From IMG/VR virus record IMGVR_UViG_2529292837_000006: a stretch of DNA of 13,047 bases; one strand, written 5' to 3'. Numbering within the stretch: position 1 is the first letter of the stretch; every line of letters starts with the position of its first letter. Both the position numbers and the translations under genes were made by a program. The notes beneath the pieces are model-generated. The model saw only the letters and a list, made by a program, of their open reading frames with translations, did no database searches and was not told the origin of the DNA. This DNA is from a virus (lineage: Duplodnaviria > Heunggongvirae > Uroviricota > Caudoviricetes). Shown piece after piece: positions 87 to 12,420 of this stretch.

Positions 87-2658
87 ACCGGTAGGCGATC
101 TGGTCGTTGATTTAAGTCTGGATGCGGCCAGATTTGACGAGCAGATGGCCAGAGTCAGGCGTCATTTTTCCGGTACGGAAACTGATGCGAAAAAAACAGC
201 GGCAGTCGTTGAACAGTCGCTGAGCCGACAGGCGCTGGCTGCACAGAAAGCGGGGATTTCCGTCGGGCAGTATAAAGCCGCCATGCGTATGCTGCCTGCA
301 CAGTTCACCGACGTGGCCACGCAGCTTGCAGGCGGGCAAAGCCCGTGGCTGATCCTGCTGCAACAGGGGGGGCAGGTTAAGGACTCCTTCGGCGGGATGA
401 TCCCCATGTTCAGGGGGCTTGCCGGTGCGATCACCCTGCCGATGGTGGGGGCCACCTCGCTGGCGGTGGCGACCGGTGCGCTGGCGTATGCCTGGTATCA
501 GGGCAACTCAACCCTGTCCGATTTCAACAAAACGCTGGTCCTTTCCGGCAATCAGGCGGGACTGACGGCAGATCGTATGCTGGTCCTGTCCAGAGCCGGG
601 CAGGCGGCAGGGCTGACGTTTAACCAGACCAGCGAGTCACTGACGGCGCTGGTGAATGCCGGTGTGCGTGGTGGTGAGCAGTTTGAGGCGATCAGCCAGA
701 GTGTGGCGCGTTTCTCCTCTGCATCCGGCGTGGAGGTGGACAAGGTCGCTGAAGCCTTCGGGAAGCTGACCACAGACCCGACGTCGGGGCTGACGGCGAT
801 GGCGCGTCAGTTCCATAACGTGACGGCGGAGCAGATTGCGTATGTTGCTCAGTTGCAGCGTTCCGGAGATGAAGCCGGGGCATTGCAGGCGGCGAACGAG
901 GCCGCAACGAAAGGGTTTGATGACCAGACCCGCCGCCTGAAAGAGAACATGGGCACGCTGGAGACCTGGGCAGACAGGACAGCACGGGCATTCAAATCCA
1001 TGTGGGATTCGGTGCTGGATATTGGTCGCCCGGACACTGCCCAGGGAATGCTGGAGAAAGCAGAAAAGGCTTTTGATGAGGCGGACAAAAAATGGCAGTG
1101 GTATCAGAGCCGGAGCCACCGGCGCGGTAAAACCTCAGCATTTCTTGCCAATCTCCGGGGAGCATGGGAGGACAGAGCGAATGCGCAACTTGGGCTTTCA
1201 GCCGCCACGTTGCAGGCCGATCTTGAAAAGGCCAGAGAGATGGCAGCAAAGGACTGGGCCGAGTCTGAGGCATCACGGCTGAAATATACCGAAGAGGCGC
1301 AGAAGGCTTACGAACGGCTGCAGACGCCGCTGGAGAAATATACCGCCCGTCAGGAAGAACTGAACAAGGCACTGAAAGACGGGAAAATCCTGCAGGCGGA
1401 TTACAACACGCTGATGGCGGCGGCGAAAAAGGATTATGAAGCGACGCTGAAAAAGCCGAAACAGTCCGGCGTGAAGGTGTCTGCGGGCGATCGTCAGGAA
1501 GACAGTGCTCATGCTGCCCTGCTGACGCTTCAGGCAGAACTCCGGACGCTGGAGAAGCATGCCGGAGCGAATGAGAAAATCAGCCAGCAGCGCCGGGATT
1601 TGTGGAAGGCGGAGAGTCAGTTCGCGGTACTGGAGGAGGCGGCGCAACGTCGCCAGCTGTCTGCACAGGAGAAATCCCTGCTGGCGCATAAAGATGAGAC
1701 GCTGGAGTACAAACGCCAGCTGGCTGCACTTGGCGACAAGGTTACGTATCAGGAGCGCCTGAACGCGCTGGCGCAGCAGGCGGATAAATTCGCACAGCAG
1801 CAACGGGCAAAACGGGCCGCCATTGATGCGAAAAGCCGGGGGCTGACTGACCGGCAGGCAGAACGGGAAGCCACGGAACAGCGCCTGAAGGAACAGTATG
1901 GCGATAATCCGCTGGCGCTGAATAACGTCATGTCAGAGCAGAAAAAGACCTGGGCGGCTGAAGACCAGCTTCGCGGGAGCTGGATGGCAGGCCTGAAGTC
2001 CGGCTGGAGTGAGTGGGAAGAGAGCGCCACGGACAGTATGTCGCAGGTTAAAAGTGCAGCCACGCAGACCTTTGATGGTATTGCACAGAATATGGCGGCG
2101 ATGCTGACCGGCAGTGAGCAGAACTGGCGCAGCTTCACCCGTTCCGTGCTGTCCATGATGACAGAAATTCTGCTTAAGCAGGCAATGGTGGGGATTGTCG
2201 GGAGTATCGGCAGCGCCATTGGCGGTGCTGCCAGTGGTGGAGCATCCGCGTCAGGCGGTACAGCCATTCAGGCCGCTGCGGCGAAATTCCATTTTGCGAC
2301 CGGGGGATTTACGGGAACCGGCGGCAAATATGAGCCAGCGGGGATTGTTCACCGTGGTGAATTTGTCTTCACGAAGGAGGCAACCAGCCGGATTGGTGTC
2401 GGCAACCTGTACCGCCTGATGCGGGGCTATGCGGAAGGTGGTTATGTGGGCGGTGCCGGAAGTCCGGCGCAGATGCGGCGGGCTGAAGGCATTAATTTTA
2501 ATCAGAACAATCACGTGGTGATTCAGAACGACGGTACGAATGGTCTGCCAGGTCCACAGATGATGAAGGCAGTGTATGACATGGCCCGCAAGGGTGCCCG
2601 TGATGAAATTCAGACACAGATGCGTGATGGTGGCCTGTTCTCCGGAGGTGGACGATGA
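79..2658 (+). CDS. H: Tail tape measure protein (lambda gpH-like), 859 aa
   Basis: Uninterrupted 859-codon ORF with ATG at 79 and an upstream AGGAGG. Long predicted helical, charged central region and a Gly-rich C-terminus (GSIGSAIGGAASGGASASGG); N-terminus MAEPVGDLVVDLSLDAARFDEQ matches lambda H as I recall it. Stop overlaps the M start (ATGA). Confidence 0.93.
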   Translation: MAEPVGDLVVDLSLDAARFDEQMARVRRHFSGTETDAKKTAAVVEQSLSRQALAAQKAGISVGQYKAAMRMLPAQFTDVATQLAGGQSPWLILLQQGGQVKDSFGGMIPMFRGLAGAITLPMVGATSLAVATGALAYAWYQGNSTLSDFNKTLVLSGNQAGLTADRMLVLSRAGQAAGLTFNQTSESLTALVNAGVRGGEQFEAISQSVARFSSASGVEVDKVAEAFGKLTTDPTSGLTAMARQFHNVTAEQIAYVAQLQRSGDEAGALQAANEAATKGFDDQTRRLKENMGTLETWADRTARAFKSMWDSVLDIGRPDTAQGMLEKAEKAFDEADKKWQWYQSRSHRRGKTSAFLANLRGAWEDRANAQLGLSAATLQADLEKAREMAAKDWAESEASRLKYTEEAQKAYERLQTPLEKYTARQEELNKALKDGKILQADYNTLMAAAKKDYEATLKKPKQSGVKVSAGDRQEDSAHAALLTLQAELRTLEKHAGANEKISQQRRDLWKAESQFAVLEEAAQRRQLSAQEKSLLAHKDETLEYKRQLAALGDKVTYQERLNALAQQADKFAQQQRAKRAAIDAKSRGLTDRQAEREATEQRLKEQYGDNPLALNNVMSEQKKTWAAEDQLRGSWMAGLKSGWSEWEESATDSMSQVKSAATQTFDGIAQNMAAMLTGSEQNWRSFTRSVLSMMTEILLKQAMVGIVGSIGSAIGGAASGGASASGGTAIQAAAAKFHFATGGFTGTGGKYEPAGIVHRGEFVFTKEATSRIGVGNLYRLMRGYAEGGYVGGAGSPAQMRRAEGINFNQNNHVVIQNDGTNGLPGPQMMKAVYDMARKGARDEIQTQMRDGGLFSGGGR

Positions 2659-2984
2659 AAACCTTCCGCTGGAAAGTGAAACCCGGTATGGATGTGGCTT
2701 CGGCCCCTTCTGTAAGAAAGGTGCGCTTTGGTGATGGCTATTCCCAGCGAGCGCCTGCCGGGCTGAATGCCAACCTGAAAACGTACAGCGTGACGCTTTC
2801 TGTCCCCCGTGAGGAGGCCACGGTACTGGAGTCGTTTCTGGAAGAGCACGGGGGCTGGAAAGCCTTTCTGTGGACGCCGCCTTATGAGTGGCGGCAGATA
2901 AAGGTGACCTGCGCAAAATGGTCGTCGCGGGTCAGTATGCTGCGTGTTGAGTTCAGCGCAGAGTTTGAACAGGTGGTGAACTGA
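2655..2984 (+). CDS. M: Minor tail protein M (lambda gpM-like), 109 aa
   Basis: 109-codon ORF, MKTFRWKVKPGMDVASAPSVRKVRFGDGYSQRAP..., same length as lambda M; start overlaps the H stop and its stop overlaps the L start (TGATG). Confidence 0.93.
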   Translation: MKTFRWKVKPGMDVASAPSVRKVRFGDGYSQRAPAGLNANLKTYSVTLSVPREEATVLESFLEEHGGWKAFLWTPPYEWRQIKVTCAKWSSRVSMLRVEFSAEFEQVVN

Positions 2985-3681
2985 TGCAGGATATCCGGCA
3001 GGAAACACTGAATGAATGCACCCGTGCGGAGCAGTCGGCCAGCGTGGTGCTCTGGGAAATCGACCTGACAGAGGTCGGTGGAGAACGTTATTTTTTCTGT
3101 AATGAGCTGAACGAAAAAGGTGAGCCGGTCACCTGGCAGGGGCGACAGTATCAGCCGTATCCCATTCAGGGGAGTGGTTTTGAACTGAATGGCAAAGGCA
3201 CCAGTACGCGCCCCACGCTGACGGTTTCTAACCTGTACGGTATGGTCACCGGGATGGCGGAAGATTGCAGAGTCTGGTCGGCGGAACGGTGGTCCGGCGT
3301 AAGGTTTACGCCCGTTTTCTGGATGCGGTGAACTTCGTTAACGGAAACAGTGACGCCGATCCGGAGCAGGAGGTGATCAGCCGCTGGCGCATCGAGCAGT
3401 GCAGCGAACTGAGCGCGGTGAGTGCCTCCTTTGTACTGTCCACGCCGACGGAAACAGATGGCGCTGTTTTTCCGGGACGTATCATGCTGGCCAACACCTG
3501 CACCTGGACCTATCGCGGCGATGAGTGCGGTTATCACGGTCCGGCGGTCGCGGATGAATATGACCAGACAACGTCCGATATCACGAAGGATAAATGCAGC
3601 AAATGCCTGAGTGGCTGTAAGTTCCGCAATAACGTCGGCAACTTTGGCGGCTTCCTTTCCATTAACAAACTTTCGCAGTAA
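2984..3681 (+). pseudogene. L: Minor tail protein L (lambda gpL-like), interrupted by a frameshift near 3263-3268
   Basis: Two overlapping ORFs, 2984..3331 (frame 2) and 3265..3681 (frame 1), together span 698 nt, one short of the 699 nt expected for a 232-aa L plus stop. Frame 2 reads ...NLYGMVTGMAED, then the continuation QSLVGGTVVRRKVYARFLDAVNFVNG... through the Cys-rich C-terminus (CSKCLSGCKF) is in frame 1. Consistent with a 1-bp deletion at gaagat|tgcag. Confidence 0.8.
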
Positions 3682-3686
3682 ATCCC

Positions 3687-4430
3687 ATGACACAGACAGA
3701 ATCAGCGATTCTGGCGCACGCCCGGCGATGTGCGCCAGCGGAGTCGTGCGGCTTCGTGGTAAGCACGCCGGAGGGGGAAAGATATTTTCCCTGCGTGAAT
3801 ATCTCCGGTGAGCCGGAGGAGTATTTCCGGATGTCGCCGGAGGACTGGCTGCGGGCAGAGATGCAGGGTGAGATTGTGGCGCTGGTCCACAGCCACCCCG
3901 GTGGTCTGCCCTGGCTGAGTGAGACCGACCGGCGGCTGCAGGTGCAGAGTGATTTGCCGTGGTGGCTGGTTTGCCGGGGGGCGATTCACAAGTTCCGCTG
4001 TGTGCCACATCTTTCCGGGCGGCGCTTTGAGCACGGGGTGACGGACTGTTACACGCTGTTCCGGGATGCTTACCATCTGGCGGGGATTGAGATGCCGGAT
4101 TTTCATCGCGAGGATGACTGGTGGCGTAACGGTCAGAATCTCTATCTGGATAATCTGGAGGCCACAGGGCTGTATCAGGTGCCGTTGTCAGCGGCGCAGC
4201 CGGGCGATGTGCTGCTGTGCTGTTTTGGTTCATCGGTGCCGAATCATGCCGCCATTTACTGTGGTGATGGCGAGCTGCTGCACCATATTCCTGAACAACT
4301 GAGCAAACGAGAGAGGTATACCGACAAATGGCAGCGACGCACACACTCCCTCTGGCGTCACCGGGCATGGCGCGCATCTGCCTTTACGGGGATTTGCAAC
4401 GATTTGGCCGCCGCATCGACCTTCGTGTGA
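3687..4430 (+). CDS. K: Tail tip assembly protein K (lambda gpK-like); MPN/JAB plus NlpC/P60 two-domain protein
   Basis: 247-codon ORF starting 6 nt after the L stop. JAMM-type motif HSHPGGLPWLSETD (HxHx7Sx2D) encoded about 3889-3930; NlpC/P60-like Cys in VTDCYTLFRDAYH (about 4040-4060). An alternative internal start is the ATG at 3831, preceded by GGAGGA and giving about 199 aa, but the longer ORF contains the N-terminal part of the MPN fold (ESCGFVV). Confidence 0.85.
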   Translation: MTQTESAILAHARRCAPAESCGFVVSTPEGERYFPCVNISGEPEEYFRMSPEDWLRAEMQGEIVALVHSHPGGLPWLSETDRRLQVQSDLPWWLVCRGAIHKFRCVPHLSGRRFEHGVTDCYTLFRDAYHLAGIEMPDFHREDDWWRNGQNLYLDNLEATGLYQVPLSAAQPGDVLLCCFGSSVPNHAAIYCGDGELLHHIPEQLSKRERYTDKWQRRTHSLWRHRAWRASAFTGICNDLAAASTFV

Positions 4431-4999
4431 AAACGGGGGCTGAAGCCATCCGCGCACTGGCCACACAGCTCCCGGCGTTTCGTCAGAAACTGAGCGACGG
4501 CTGGTATCAGGTACGGATTGCCGGGCGGGACGTCAGCACGTCCGGGTTAACGGCGCAGTTACATGAGACTCTGCCTGATGGCGCTGTGATTCATATTGTT
4601 CCCAGAGTCGCCGGGGCCAAGTCAGGTGGCGTATTCCAGATTGTCCTGGGGGCTGCCGCCATTGCCGGATCATTCTTTACCGCCGGAGCCACCCTTGCAG
4701 CATGGGGGGCAGCCATTGGGGCCGGTGGTATGACCGGCATCCTGTTTTCTCTCGGTGCCAGTATGGTGCTCGGTGGTGTGGCGCAGATGCTGGCACCGAA
4801 AGCCAGAACTCCCCGTACACAGACAACGGATAACGGCAAACAGAACACCTATTTCTCCTCCCTGGATAACATGGTTGCCCAGGGTAATGTTCTGCCGGTT
4901 CTGTACGGTGAAATGCGCGTGGGGTCACGCGTGGTTTCTCAGGAGATCAGCACGGCAGACGAAGGGGATGGTGGTCAGGTTGTGGTGATTGGTCGCTGA
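4328..4999 (+). CDS. I: Tail tip assembly protein I (lambda gpI-like), 223 aa
   Basis: 223-codon ORF with ATG at 4328, MAATHTLPLASPGMARICLYGDLQRFGRRIDLRV...; Gly/Ala-rich hydrophobic C-terminal half (GAAAIAGSFFTAGATLAAWGAAIGAGG). Overlaps the 3' end of K by 103 nt in a different frame, as in lambda. Confidence 0.9.
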   Translation: MAATHTLPLASPGMARICLYGDLQRFGRRIDLRVKTGAEAIRALATQLPAFRQKLSDGWYQVRIAGRDVSTSGLTAQLHETLPDGAVIHIVPRVAGAKSGGVFQIVLGAAAIAGSFFTAGATLAAWGAAIGAGGMTGILFSLGASMVLGGVAQMLAPKARTPRTQTTDNGKQNTYFSSLDNMVAQGNVLPVLYGEMRVGSRVVSQEISTADEGDGGQVVVIGR

Positions 5000-5017
5000 T
5001 GCAAAATGTTTTATGTG

Positions 5018-5038
5018 AAACCGCCTCCGGGCGGTTTT
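5018..5038 (+). terminator. Hairpin plus T-run between I and J (weak intrinsic terminator or attenuator-like)
   Basis: aaaccgcc-tccg-ggcggtttt: GC-rich stem ccgcc/ggcgg extended by A:T pairs, followed by ttttgtcgttt; lies in the 60-nt I-J spacer. Confidence 0.35.
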
Positions 5039-5059
5039 GTCGTTTATGGAGCATGACGA

Positions 5060-8462
<3,403 letters not shown>

Positions 8463-8480
8463 ATTTTATAACCCAGAACG

Positions 8481-8504
8481 GGCGTCAGAAATGACGCCTT
8501 TTTT
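8481..8504 (+). terminator. Rho-independent terminator-like hairpin between J and lom
   Basis: ggcgtca-gaaa-tgacgcc followed by tttttt; 7-bp perfect stem, 4-nt loop, 6 T. Confidence 0.6.
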
Positions 8505-8528: not shown

Positions 8529-9128
8529 ATGCGTAAACTTTATGCCGCCATTTTGTCCGCAGCCATTTGTCTGGCCGTATCCGGTGCGCCTGCATGGGCG
8601 TCTGAACATCAGTCCACGCTGAGCGCGGGGTATCTTCATGCCCGGACGAACGTTCCCGGCAGTGATGATCTGAACGGGATTAACGTGAAATACCGTTATG
8701 AGTTTACGGACACACTGGGGCTGATTACGTCATTCAGTTATGCCAACGCTGAAGATGAGCAAAAAACGCATTACAGCGATACCCGCTGGCATGAAGATTC
8801 CGTGCGTAACCGCTGGTTCAGCGTAATGGCGGGGCCGTCTGTGCGCGTGAATGAATGGTTCAGCGCGTATGCGATGGCGGGTGTGGCTTACAGCCGTGTG
8901 TCGACTTTCTCCGGGGATTATATCCGCGTAACTGACAATAAGGGGAAAACGCACGATGTGCTGACCGGAAGTGATGACGGTCGCCACAGCAACACGTCTC
9001 TGGTGTGGGGGGCTGGCGTGCAGTTTAACCCGACCGAATCCGTGGCCATTGATGTCGCTTATGAAGGCTCCGGCAGTGGTGACTGGCGCACTGACGGGTT
9101 CATCGTGGGTGTTGGTTATAAATTCTGA
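8529..9128 (+). CDS. lom: Lom outer-membrane protein (Ail/Lom/PagC-family beta-barrel), 199 aa
   Basis: ATG at 8529 with GAGAGG upstream; signal peptide [24 protein letters not shown] with probable cleavage after AWA; aromatic-rich alternating beta-strand pattern and C-terminal ...[10 protein letters not shown] typical of an outer-membrane beta-barrel; sits between J and stf as in lambda. Confidence 0.9.
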
Positions 9129-9155
9129 TTAGCCAGGTAACACAGTGTTATGACA

Positions 9156-9181
9156 GCCCGCCGGTTCAGGCGGGCTTTTTT
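9156..9181 (+). terminator. Rho-independent terminator after lom
   Basis: gcccgcc-ggttca-ggcgggc followed by tttttt; 7-bp GC-rich stem, immediately 3' of the lom stop. Confidence 0.7.
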
Positions 9182-9192
9182 GTGGGGTGAAT

Positions 9193-12100
9193 ATGGCAGT
9201 AAAGATTTCAGGTGTACTGAAAGACGGCACAGGAAAACCGGTACAGAACTGCACAATCCAGCTGAAAGCAAAACGTAACAGTACCACGGTGGTGGTGAAC
9301 ACGCTGGCCTCAGAAAATCCGGATGAAGCCGGGCGTTACAGCATGGACGTTGAGTACGGTCAGTACAGCGTTATTCTGTTGGTGGAGGGATTCCCGCCGT
9401 CACATGCCGGGACCATCACCGTGTATGAAGATTCCCGACCCGGTACGCTGAATGATTTTCTCGGTGCCATGACGGAGGATGATGCCCGTCCTGAGGCACT
9501 GCGCCGTTTTGAACTGATGGTGGAAGAGGTGGCGCGTAACGCGTCCGCGGTGGCACAGAACACGGCAGCCGCGAAGAAGTCAGCCAGCGATGCCGGCACA
9601 TCAGCCCGTGAGGCGGCAACCCATGCGACTGATGCTGCAGGCTCAGCACGCGCAGCCAGCACGTCAGCCGGACAGGCCGCGTCGTCGGCTCAGTCAGCAT
9701 CTTCCAGCGCAGGAACGGCATCAACAAAGGCCAGTGAAGCATCGAAAAGTGCTGCTGCTGCAGAGTCCTCAAAAAGCGCGGCAGCTACCAGTGCCGCTGC
9801 GGCGAAAACGTCAGAAACGAATGCGGCAGCGTCACAACAATCAGCAGCCACTTCTGCATCCGCCGCGACCACGAAGGCGTCAGAAGCAGCCACCTCAGCC
9901 CGGGATGCGGCGGCCTCAAAAGAGGCAGCGAAATCATCAGAAACGAACGCATCATCAAGCGCCAGTAGTGCCGCTTCCTCGGCAACGGCGGCAGGCAATT
10001 CCGCGAAGGCGGCAAAGACGTCTGAGACAAACGCCAGGTCTTCTGAAACGGCAGCGGGACAGAGCGCCTCAGCTGCGGCAGGCTCAAAAACAGCGGCTGC
10101 GTCGTCTGCCAGTGCCGCGTCAACAAGTGCCGGGCAGGCCTCAGCCAGTGCCACCGCCGCCGGAAAATCGGCAGAAAGTGCCGCATCGTCTGCTTCAACA
10201 GCCACAACGAAGGCTGGCGAAGCCACTGAACAGGCCAGCGCAGCAGCGAGGTCTGCTTCCGCAGCGAAGACATCCGAAACGAACGCGAAAGCGTCGGAAA
10301 CCAGCGCAGAATCCTCAAAAACGGCTGCCGCATCGTCCGCCAGTTCGGCGGCGCCATCGGCCTCATCGGCGTCTGCTTCAAAAGATGAGGCGACCAGACA
10401 GGCATCAGCAGCGAAAGGCAGCGCCACGACGGCATCCACGAAAGCAACAGAGGCGGCAGGCAGTGCGACGGCAGCATCTCAGAGCAAAACTACTGCTGAA
10501 TCCGCTGCGACCCGTGCGGAAGCTGCTGCTGATCGTGCTGAAGAGATTGCCGGTGCAGTTGCGATGGAAGACGCAAGCCTTACAACTAAAGGTGTTGTGA
10601 AACTTAGCAGTGCTGTTGATAGCACCAGTGAATCGCTGGCCGCAACGCCAAAAGCAGTTAAAGCAGCCAATGACAATGCGAATAGCAGGGTGCCATCTAA
10701 CCGAAAAGTTAACGGAAAAGCACTGACTGCGGATATAACATTAACGCCGAAAGATATTGGTACTTTAAATTCAGTAACGATGTCTTTCTCTGGCGGGGCT
10801 GGGTGGTTCAAACTGGCTACGGTTACCATGCCACAAGCGAGTTCCATCGTTTACATCGCATTGATTGGTGGCGCTGGTTACAACGTCGGTTCCCCACATC
10901 AGGCAGGCATTTCAGAACTGGTTCTACGAGCAGGCAATGGAAACCCCAAAGGAATTACCGGGGCTTTGTGGAAGCGTACAGCCGTCGGATTAACGAATTT
11001 CGCCTGGATCAACACATCCGGCGATACATATGATATTTACGTTGAGATTGGCAATTATGCGACGAGTGTAAATATCCATTGGGATTGTACTGCAAATGCG
11101 TCAGTTTCTGTTTATACCTCGCCAACATATTCAGCGAGTAAGCCTTCCAGCGTTACCTATGGTGTTGTTTATACGATGTATAGCTCACATCAGAAACCTA
11201 CACCATCAGATATTGGAGCACTGCCAACAACCGGAGGAACAGTTTCAGGTCCGTTGTCTGTTACAGGTGGATTAACTGGTTCATTGAATGGTAATGCAAG
11301 TACAGCCACGAAATTGCAGACGGCAAGATCTATCGGTGGAGTTGTTTTCGACGGTTCTGCAAATATTAACCTTCCAGGTGTAAACACTACGGGTAATCAG
11401 AACACCACTGGTAATGCTGCAACTGCTACAAAACTTCAGACTGCAAGAAAAATATCCGGTGTTCCATTTGATGGTTCTACTGATATCACTTTAACCGCCG
11501 CGCATGTGGCTGCTTTTGCCAGAAGGGCAACGGATACATATGCCGATGCGGATGGTGGCGTTCCCTGGAATGCCGAATCAGGCGCTTACAATGTCACCCG
11601 CTCTGGCGACACCTATATTCTGGTTAACTTCTATACCGGAGTCGGAAGTTGCCGGACCTTGCAGATGAAGGCACATTACAGAAATGGAGGTCTGTTCTAC
11701 CGTTCCTCAAGAGATGGCTATGGTTTTGAGGAAGACTGGGCAGAAGTTTATACCTCGAAAAATCTTCCACCAGAAAGCTACCCAGTCGGCGCACCAATCC
11801 CGTGGCCATCAGATACCGTTCCGTCTGGTTATGCCCTGATGCAGGGGCAGACTTTTGACAAATCTGCATACCCGAAACTTGCAGCCGCTTATCCGTCAGG
11901 CGTGATCCCTGATATGCGTGGCTGGACGATTAAGGGCAAGCCCGCCAGTGGTCGGGCCGTATTGTCTCAGGAACAGGACGGCATTAAATCACACACCCAC
12001 AGCGCCAGCGTATCCAGTACGGATTTGGGGACGAAAACCACATCGTCGTTTGATTACGGCACTAAATCCACGAATAACACTGGTGCGCATACCCATAGTG

Positions 12101-12420
12101 TTAGCGGTACGGCTGCTTCAGCCGGTGCACATACCCATTCGATGACATTTGTTTCAGGTGGTTCCAGTGGTGCTCCGGGAAGTGGATCACCTGATTATTC
12201 TAAATACAGTGTTAACACTTCTTCTGCAGGCGCTCATACGCACTCTGTATCGGGTACTGCTGCAAGCGCAGGCGCACATGCACATACTGTCGGTATTGGT
12301 GCTCATACGCACTCCGTTGCGATTGGTTCACATGGACACACCATCACCGTTAACGCTGCTGGTAACGCGGAAAACACCGTCAAAAACATCGCATTTAACT
12401 ATATTGTGAGGCTTGCATAA
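9193..12420 (+). CDS. stf: Side tail fibre protein Stf, full length and mosaic (about 1075 aa from the ATG)
   Basis: Uninterrupted ORF; the ORF track starts at GTG 9187 but the ATG at 9193 gives [26 protein letters not shown], the lambda Stf N-terminus. Contains an Ala/Ser/Thr-rich low-complexity region with repeated K[TS]SETNA motifs, two tandem fibre repeats ([28 protein letters not shown] and [28 protein letters not shown]), and a C-terminus with GAHTHS/GAHAHT/GSHGHT HxH motifs ending ...[22 protein letters not shown]. Stop overlaps the tfa start (TAATG). Confidence 0.9.
9545..10560 (+). repeat. Low-complexity Ala/Ser/Thr-rich repetitive coding region inside stf
   Basis: About 330 codons dominated by A/S/T with recurring KTSETNA-type motifs (about 9805, 9931, 10015, 10266); the repetitive GC-rich DNA leaves long ORFs open in several frames on both strands. 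Confidence 0.7.
11290..11496 (+). repeat. Two tandem phage tail-fibre repeat units inside stf
   Basis: Two 28-aa units sharing G-N-A[25 protein letters not shown], about 120 nt apart. Confidence 0.6.

Follow-up and report, generated by a model that had tools for sequence, protein, structure and literature searches.

The window analysed here is a stretch of 13,047 nucleotides (nt) from a virus of the class Caudoviricetes (IMG/VR record IMGVR_UViG_2529292837_000006). Near its 3' end lies stf, a gene whose product is very probably a side tail fibre (Stf) from a lambda-like siphovirus prophage of Escherichia coli and belongs to the long, StfR-type class of these fibres (Table 1). All features of the lambdoid Stf family (PF08400) that could be tested, i.e., the StfN domain, the gene position and the long proximal rod, are present. 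A previous reading of the letters alone (the sequence-only reading) had described stf as one uninterrupted open reading frame (ORF) of about 1075 codons, and translation of 9193-12420 (+) indeed yields 1075 amino acids (aa) without any stop inside the frame. The ATG at 9193 is preferred as the start because it matches both lambda Stf and the solved N-terminal chain 9e7m_Ta; a GTG at 9187, two codons upstream, represents an alternative start. A GGGG run is found a few bases upstream of the ATG. The start of the adjacent tfa overlaps the stf stop codon, and its product is 93.8% identical to lambda Tfa, 92.8% to TfaR and 100% to Tfa of the prophage in E. coli TW10828.

Table 1. Features of the window; residues refer to the Stf protein, positions to the window.
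Feature	Residues	Position	Strand	Basis
stf, side tail fibre gene	1-1075	9193..12420	+	Uninterrupted ORF, 1075 codons plus stop
StfN collar domain	1-91	9193..9465	+	Pfam phage_tail_N; PDB 9e7m_Ta
Predicted proximal coiled-coil rod, ~49 heptads, Ala/Ser core	~102-455	9496..10557	+	Heptad register
15-heptad block missing in lambda Stf, present in StfR-type fibres	304-408	10102..10416	+	Single in-register 105-aa gap in lambda alignment
Phage_fiber_2 motif	462-502	10576..10698	+	Pfam PF03406, E 2.6e-20
Swapped cassette (gene nt 1488-2217)	~496-739	10680..11409	+	No DNA homology to K-12 stfR, 2H10, PhiR34_1
Predicted jelly-roll beta-sandwich module, no Pfam family	523-669	10759..11199	+	Predicted model and fold matches
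Two 28-residue FDGS...I.L repeats	700-727 and 740-767	11290..11493	+	Regex and sequence
Mu S-like/gp37_C segment	772-860	11506..11772	+	PDB 8ju3 and Pfam gp37_C
T4 gp37-type receptor-binding tip (collar, HxH needle, head)	861-1075	11773..12417	+	PDB 2xgf, E 1.6e-87
Putative receptor-specificity insert (= T4 gp37 932-965)	983-1014	12139..12234	+	Divergence between conserved flanks
tfa, tail fibre assembly chaperone, 194 aa		12420..13004	+	Pfam Caudo_TAP, E 2.7e-45
Terminator-like hairpin between lom and stf		9155..9186	+	8-bp stem, 7 GC pairs, then TTTTT
Tape measure		79-2658
M		2655-2984
L		about 2984-3681
K		3687-4430
I		4328-4999
J		about 5060-8460
lom		8529-9128		Pfam Ail_Lom, E 1e-126

Modules of the fibre protein

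Scans of the whole protein were incomplete (three families in Pfam, none in NCBIfam), and scanning by segment recovered Phage_fiber_2 and gp37_C. At the N-terminus, the profile phage_tail_N (PF08400) matches with an E-value of 1.5e-71 over aa 1-134 and the N-terminus of Ur-lambda Stf (9e7m_Ta) with 1.8e-51. The StfN domain attaches the fibre to the tail where gpV and gpM meet (PMC12617516). Further along lies a tract that the sequence-only reading had described as an enlarged Ala/Ser/Thr repeat. The enlargement holds relative to lambda, whose tract is 105 aa shorter, but the notion of a repeat does not. Judged by its periodicity, the tract is a predicted proximal coiled-coil rod, as in lambda Stf, and not low-complexity repetition. 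Ala occupies one heptad position in 47 of 48 heptads, Ser follows three residues later in 37 of 48, and the register is unbroken. The power at period 7/3.5 exceeds that of shuffles by z = 14-40, and every spacing between DNA repeats in the rod is a multiple of 21 nt. Tandem Repeats Finder reported no array in the tract, the repeat being degenerate at the DNA level. A cryo-electron microscopy and tomography study of Ur-lambda assigned the proximal coiled coil to Stf residues 102-393 (PMC12617516). The rod has exactly the length of those in StfR and the fibres of 2H10 and PhiR34_1 (0 gaps). A recent internal duplication was rejected as the source of the additional 15 heptads, since the best other in-register block agrees at 57 of 105 positions, near the background self-similarity of 42-47% at heptad-multiple shifts. 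The region encoding the coiled coil is also overlapped by long ORFs of 230-336 aa at 9590-10600 (+), 9690-10439 (-) and 9785-10477 (-), and the lambda record annotates a comparable overlapping ORF, 'orf206b'. We do not regard these other-frame and opposite-strand ORFs as genes; most likely they are by-products of the periodic GCN/AGC/ACN codons.

Beyond the rod, the Phage_fiber_2 motif region matches Mu S (5yvq/8ju3) and is followed by a segment for which a jelly-roll fold is predicted. An AlphaFold2 monomer model of aa 520-699, computed with diverse representatives in the alignment, reached a predicted local distance difference test score (pLDDT) of 82.7. The model has the eight strands in two sheets that characterise the C-terminal beta-sandwich of tailspikes. 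A first run over aa 500-770 with a shallow, E. coli-only alignment gave a pLDDT of 50.7, and its fold search was not relied on. At the sequence level, identity to the sandwich of WceF (residues 531-667) is 11-13%, which does not amount to homology. A profile search of PDB sequences with the jelly-roll family returned the gp37 tip alone, a match due to flanking sequence in some family members, and the hidden Markov model of the family found no match in StfR, 2H10 or PhiR34_1. No Pfam model describes the family to which the module belongs, and sequence comparison detects no solved relative of it. In WceF (6tgf) and in Acinetobacter phage tailspikes, the sandwich is C-terminal and follows an enzymatic beta-helix, whereas in the window it sits in the middle of a fibre shaft, and the fibre contains no beta-helix or depolymerase domain.

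The resemblance of the predicted fold raises the question whether the fibre carries a second binding site in addition to its gp37-type tip. In that case the jelly-roll knob would bind a surface glycan (O-antigen, capsule or LPS (lipopolysaccharide) core), and exchange of the cassette would alter host range independently of the tip. A glycan-binding role is possible on the strength of that resemblance, yet the WceF sandwich has been described as a trimer-packing element with no binding role assigned, and the in-line occurrence of the module in multiple copies equally suits a structural knob in the shaft. Moreover, no residues of the module were recognised as ligand-binding, and it shares 5-16% sequence identity with characterised lectins. 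We therefore consider a second binding site unlikely. The same low credence goes to the broader proposal that the ~147-residue jelly-roll is a portable, glycan-binding second adhesin that is traded between chromosomal lambdoid prophages and ~110-kb phage-plasmids and retunes host range.

After the jelly-roll, two 28-residue repeats occur, which agrees with the two repeats that the sequence-only reading had pointed out in this middle part. Their DNA is 69-82% identical to fibre genes of P1, P7, 9g, SSU5, Goslar, T4-like Acinetobacter phages and a cyanophage. The next segment matches Mu S/S' (8ju3; domain E 5.6e-20, aa 772-866) and gp37_C (E 1.4e-6, aa 786-853). The tip itself comprises a Pfam Collar match (E 6.4e-12) and five Phage_fiber repeats, together with seven HxH motifs at positions equivalent to the seven of T4; lambda has eight. 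The conserved distal region of ~215 aa, the HxH motifs and the adjacent chaperone gene that characterise the T4 gp37/lambda Stf tip family (PMC9659904) are all found. Compared with T4, the flanks of the head insert are well conserved (96 of 122 positions identical against gp37 812-931 and 47 of 61 against 966-1026). The insert itself is not: identical residues number 8 of 34 for T4, 6 of 45 for lambda, 12 of 37 for StfR and 15 of 33 for 2H10, with flanks at 79-100%. In gp37, the corresponding segment 932-965 determines receptor specificity, with contact residues T939, V941, G943, Y949, Y953 and A955 (PMC9659904, PMC5221442). Where T4 contacts OmpC and LPS through T939, V941, G943, Y949 and A955, the window tip has G, S, A, G and K, respectively. 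The sequence-only reading had taken the mosaic to imply a receptor other than that of lambda Stf, which is possible but goes further than the sequence supports: the tip belongs to the same gp37/Stf class as that of lambda and comes with a lambda-like Tfa, and only the ~32-aa insert differs.

Mosaic composition and distribution

For a comparison by segment (Table 2), Ur-lambda Stf (774 aa) was rebuilt from J02459 by restoring the single missing C, and proteins were aligned segment by segment with K-12 StfR (b1372, Rac prophage, 1120 aa) and the fibres of 2H10 (1117 aa) and PhiR34_1 (1134 aa). The two latter fibres follow the pattern of StfR.

Table 2. Identity of the window Stf to two reference fibres, by segment.
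Residues	Ur-lambda Stf	K-12 StfR
1-116	92%	99%
117-455	Colinear, window +105 residues	95%, no gaps
456-505	58%	64%
506-579	No homology	23% (forced alignment)
580-729	No homology	20% (forced alignment)
730-771	No homology	69%
772-860	No homology	99%
861-930	87%	99%
931-1010	60%	71%
1011-1075	88%	98%

The lambda-like character that the sequence-only reading had attributed to both ends of the protein is evident. Its proposal that the middle segment (10560-11740) is foreign to lambda applies to aa 506-860, while the first ~50 residues (aa 456-505), which include the Phage_fiber_2 motif, still share 58% identity with lambda Stf. An exchange of modules is equally well supported: identities with StfR jump from 95-99% to ~20% and back, and the breakpoints in the DNA are sharp. 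The gene aligns with stfR, 2H10 and PhiR34_1 over nt 1-1487 and again from nt 2218 through the 3' end into tfa; PhiR34_1 additionally lacks homology at nt 2916-3041, in the region of the tip insert. Colinear homology with StfR along the whole protein is thus interrupted at nt 1488-2217, and the flanks of this cassette are 90-95% identical in DNA to the three relatives. Homology stops just within the Phage_fiber_2 motif and restarts exactly at the first codon of the second 28-residue repeat (nt 2218 = window 11410). The mosaicism of stf is real, with breakpoints at these two conserved motifs, and the Phage_fiber_2 motif reads as a conserved linker and recombination junction.

The cassette has close relatives elsewhere. 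It is 97-98% identical to phi458 and CMS-2020a and 93% identical to Cyrano. Phage phi458 has gene nt 1-2282 in common with the window at 96.7% and diverges afterwards. In the 108-kb phages CMS-2020a and Cyrano, homology is confined to the interior of the gene (nt ~534-2537 and ~545-2300, respectively; 94%). Among 5426 complete E. coli genomes, window positions 10700-11400 are found at a coverage of at least 80% in 557, at 601 places on chromosomes and 173 on plasmids. The cassette is also present in 121 plasmids of PLSDB; 169 of 170 matching plasmids are non-mobilizable, most matches are 95-99% identical, and the plasmids among the matches listed measure 101-113 kb. Given its occurrence on both chromosomes and large plasmids, the module moves between lambdoid prophages and large phage-plasmids. 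The sharing with Cyrano and CMS-2020a shows exchange between very different phage types.

The full-length gene is likewise common. RefSeq contains the exact protein (WP_071607718.1) under the label 'prophage tail fiber N-terminal domain-containing protein [Escherichia coli]', and 369 of the 5426 genomes have copies covering at least 80% of the gene; the 30 matches listed are all full-length, with 97.8-99.3% DNA identity. The copy in E. coli EC2341 is 99.4% identical in protein and differs at 23 of 3228 nt, most of these differences being grouped at gene nt 879-1434 and 2799-3123. In TW10828, all 34 differences fall within nt 105-1162, and identity is complete from nt 1163 through tfa. No record in the phage collection searched covers 80% or more of stf, and hence this exact combination of modules has so far been seen only in prophages. 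The sequence-only reading had named a homologue of uniform identity along the entire length as an argument against recent exchange, and, taken literally, such homologues do exist. Since it is common in complete genomes, the allele is an established one and not the product of a recent exchange peculiar to the source genome. The allele is widespread and already catalogued, an ordinary case of tail-fibre mosaicism.

These complete genomes also bear on the origin of the mosaic. A chimeric contig, assembled from reads of several co-resident lambdoid prophages, would produce a similar pattern, as E. coli genomes have a median of 2 and up to 16 stf-like places and the window is a short draft contig ending 43 nt after tfa. 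However, the same full-length order of modules recurs in the complete genomes, and the TW10828 and EC2341 copies match as closely as described, which effectively refutes assembly chimerism and leaves it a very small probability. An invertible tail-fibre system such as those of Mu (S/U with Gin), P1 (S with Cin) or e14 (with Pin) is not indicated. Up to one mismatch, the Gin/Cin/Pin crossover site (AAACCNNGGTTT core) has 0 matches in the whole window, although the contig ends before any invertase gene could show. Relatives have pinR-type recombinases downstream. Homologous recombination at conserved linker motifs has probably combined modules that are found in other lambdoid prophages and in ~110-kb phage-plasmids. 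The nearest full-length alleles (TW10828, EC2341) differ from the window in patches, which, together with the several stf-like places per genome, is as expected from ongoing homologous exchange between stf copies. Reports of tail-fibre mosaicism at conserved motifs go back to the early 1990s (cited in PMC3945230).

Tail module and state of the prophage

The gene order H-M-L-K-I-J-lom-stf-tfa is that of a lambda-type tail module, and the position of stf after J and lom and directly before tfa is the same in lambda, Rac, 2H10, PhiR34_1 and TW10828. Upstream of stf, a terminator-like hairpin separates it from lom (Table 1), and a second hairpin with a T-run at 8480-8499, after J, brackets lom on the other side. 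The terminator scanner counted 2 against a shuffle expectation of 1.0 +/- 1.1, i.e., not above chance. The arrangement fits lom as a separately expressed 'moron', with stf requiring antiterminated late transcription.

In TW10828, the same stf allele lies inside a complete, intact tail module. Compared with this prophage, the reading frame of L is broken in the window by a 1-nt deletion at 3266, and that of J by deletions of 1-2 nt at 5967-5988, 6750, 6813, 8196, 8280 and 8391. None of these deletions in L and J (0) is at a homopolymer run, and the DNA at 1501-5000 is otherwise 100% identical to TW10828. The stf gene may accordingly be seen as a silent relic of a defective prophage, intact, unused by its own phage and serving as a reservoir of modules for incoming lambdoid phages. 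The best-matching copy (EC2341) resides in a heavily deleted prophage without J, and recombination of lambda with the stf-tfa genes of two defective prophages, Rac and Qin, has been described (PMC3945230); both observations fit such a role. Yet the genes stf, tfa, H, M, K, I and lom remain undamaged, complete tail modules containing this allele exist in TW10828 and other genomes, and, the window being a 13-kb draft contig, the frameshifts may be assembly errors instead of recent pseudogenisation. We hold the relic status to be possible but doubtful; it concerns a single copy and leaves the identity of the gene as a side tail fibre untouched.

Two regions, 1001-1500 in the tape measure gene and 8001-8500 at the 3' end of J, are only 76-78% identical to TW10828 and contain several indels, which indicates additional mosaicism in both genes, in J at its receptor-binding end. 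The surroundings of the two nearest copies differ as well. Downstream of stf-tfa in EC2341 (locus 14258-15862) lie a gene for a TIR domain-containing anti-phage reverse transcriptase and a frameshifted recombinase. Here a defence gene occupies the fibre-distal end of a decayed, J-less prophage; the locus is not part of the window. In TW10828, the identical tfa is followed (locus 14456-15523) by a partial tfa pseudogene and, on the opposite strand, a methyltransferase gene, which may be what is left of an alternative or inverted fibre-chaperone set.

Proposed working and comparison with known fibres

By homology with Ur-lambda, we infer that three chains form one fibre. Their N-terminal domains would join the collar at the gpV-gpM junction, and the Ala/Ser-core coiled coil would act as a rigid proximal rod that keeps the distal part away from the tail. 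The Phage_fiber_2 motif would lead to a distal shaft in which a jelly-roll knob, the two 28-residue repeats and the Mu S/gp37_C-like segment replace the hinge and distal coiled coil of lambda. At its end, the fibre is expected to consist of a collar, an HxH needle that probably binds iron, and a head with the short variable insert, with the adjacent Tfa presumably folding the tip. This tip would make the first, reversible contact with an outer-membrane receptor, likely a porin such as OmpC or a sugar of the LPS core, and thereby speed adsorption before J engages its own receptor. Such a role corresponds to that of Ur-lambda Stf, which forms trimeric fibres on the virion and accelerates adsorption, with a role for OmpC (PMC12617516).

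A few points weigh against this picture. As assembled, with L and J broken, the prophage could not build a tail to carry the fibre, unless the breaks are errors of the draft assembly. The jelly-roll was assigned from a predicted monomer model, and the aligned WceF residues were not reported by the fold search. The rod, at ~354 residues, would measure about 53 nm and the extra 15 heptads would add about 15.6 nm relative to lambda, both values assuming a canonical coiled-coil rise. A longer reach than that of lambda Stf is a reasonable inference, given the added length of the coiled coil (15 heptads) and of the distal shaft (~355 versus ~132 aa), and the different reach put forward by the sequence-only reading is therefore fair. 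Its description of the fibre as expanded is correct when measured against lambda Stf but not against StfR-type fibres, whose coiled coil has the same length. For fibre expansion, lambda is the wrong yardstick, and StfR-type fibres are the proper comparison.

As a discovery, the locus carries little weight: side tail fibres, gp37-like tips, Tfa chaperones and mosaic evolution are already known, and only the jelly-roll fibre module without a Pfam model is mildly new. Its practical value resides in a residue-level module map that replaces a generic RefSeq label. The map flags this module as mobile between prophages and phage-plasmids and marks the Phage_fiber_2 motif and the ATKLQTAR repeat as natural junctions of the type on which the design of chimeric lambda Stf delivery particles relies. 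Fusion points in engineered lambda Stf chimeras have been residue 393, residue 528 or the first stretch of homology (bioRxiv 10.1101/2025.02.28.640725).

Among known systems, T4 gp37 (2xgf) aligns end to end with aa 861-1075, has an identical C-terminal stretch and is likewise encoded next to a chaperone gene of the gp38/Tfa type, whereas the rest of the window protein is unrelated to gp37. Tips of this class bind OmpC (T4, lambda), OmpF (TuIa) or sugars of the LPS core (PhiNP, Glc-II), as described in literature including PMC12617516, PMC9659904 and PMC5221442. Gifsy-1 Stf, an orthologue of lambda Stf, binds Gal-II of the LPS core. Ur-lambda Stf resembles the window fibre in its StfN collar, heptad-pattern rod, Phage_fiber_2 motif and tip flanks, but has its hinge and distal coiled coil (aa 394-525) where the window has ~355 aa of unrelated modules. 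Its tip also differs by the eighth HxH motif, an extra SFDYGTK repeat and a longer head insert. The ~110-kb phage-plasmids Cyrano and CMS-2020a share the distal coiled coil, Phage_fiber_2, the jelly-roll cassette and the repeats (nt ~534-2537) at 94-98% DNA identity, in fibres with another N-terminal attachment region and another C-terminal end. The Cyrano fibre (locus 3466-7491) has 1341 aa, five ATKLQTAR repeats and no adjacent tfa. StfR and the fibres of 2H10 and PhiR34_1 share with the window fibre the lom-stf-tfa position, aa 1-455 (95-99% identical), aa 772-930 and 1011-1075 (98-99%) and the tip class with seven HxH motifs. They differ in the non-homologous cassette and in the specificity insert, of which only 5-15 residues are identical, and StfR has one ATKLQT-type repeat where the window has two.

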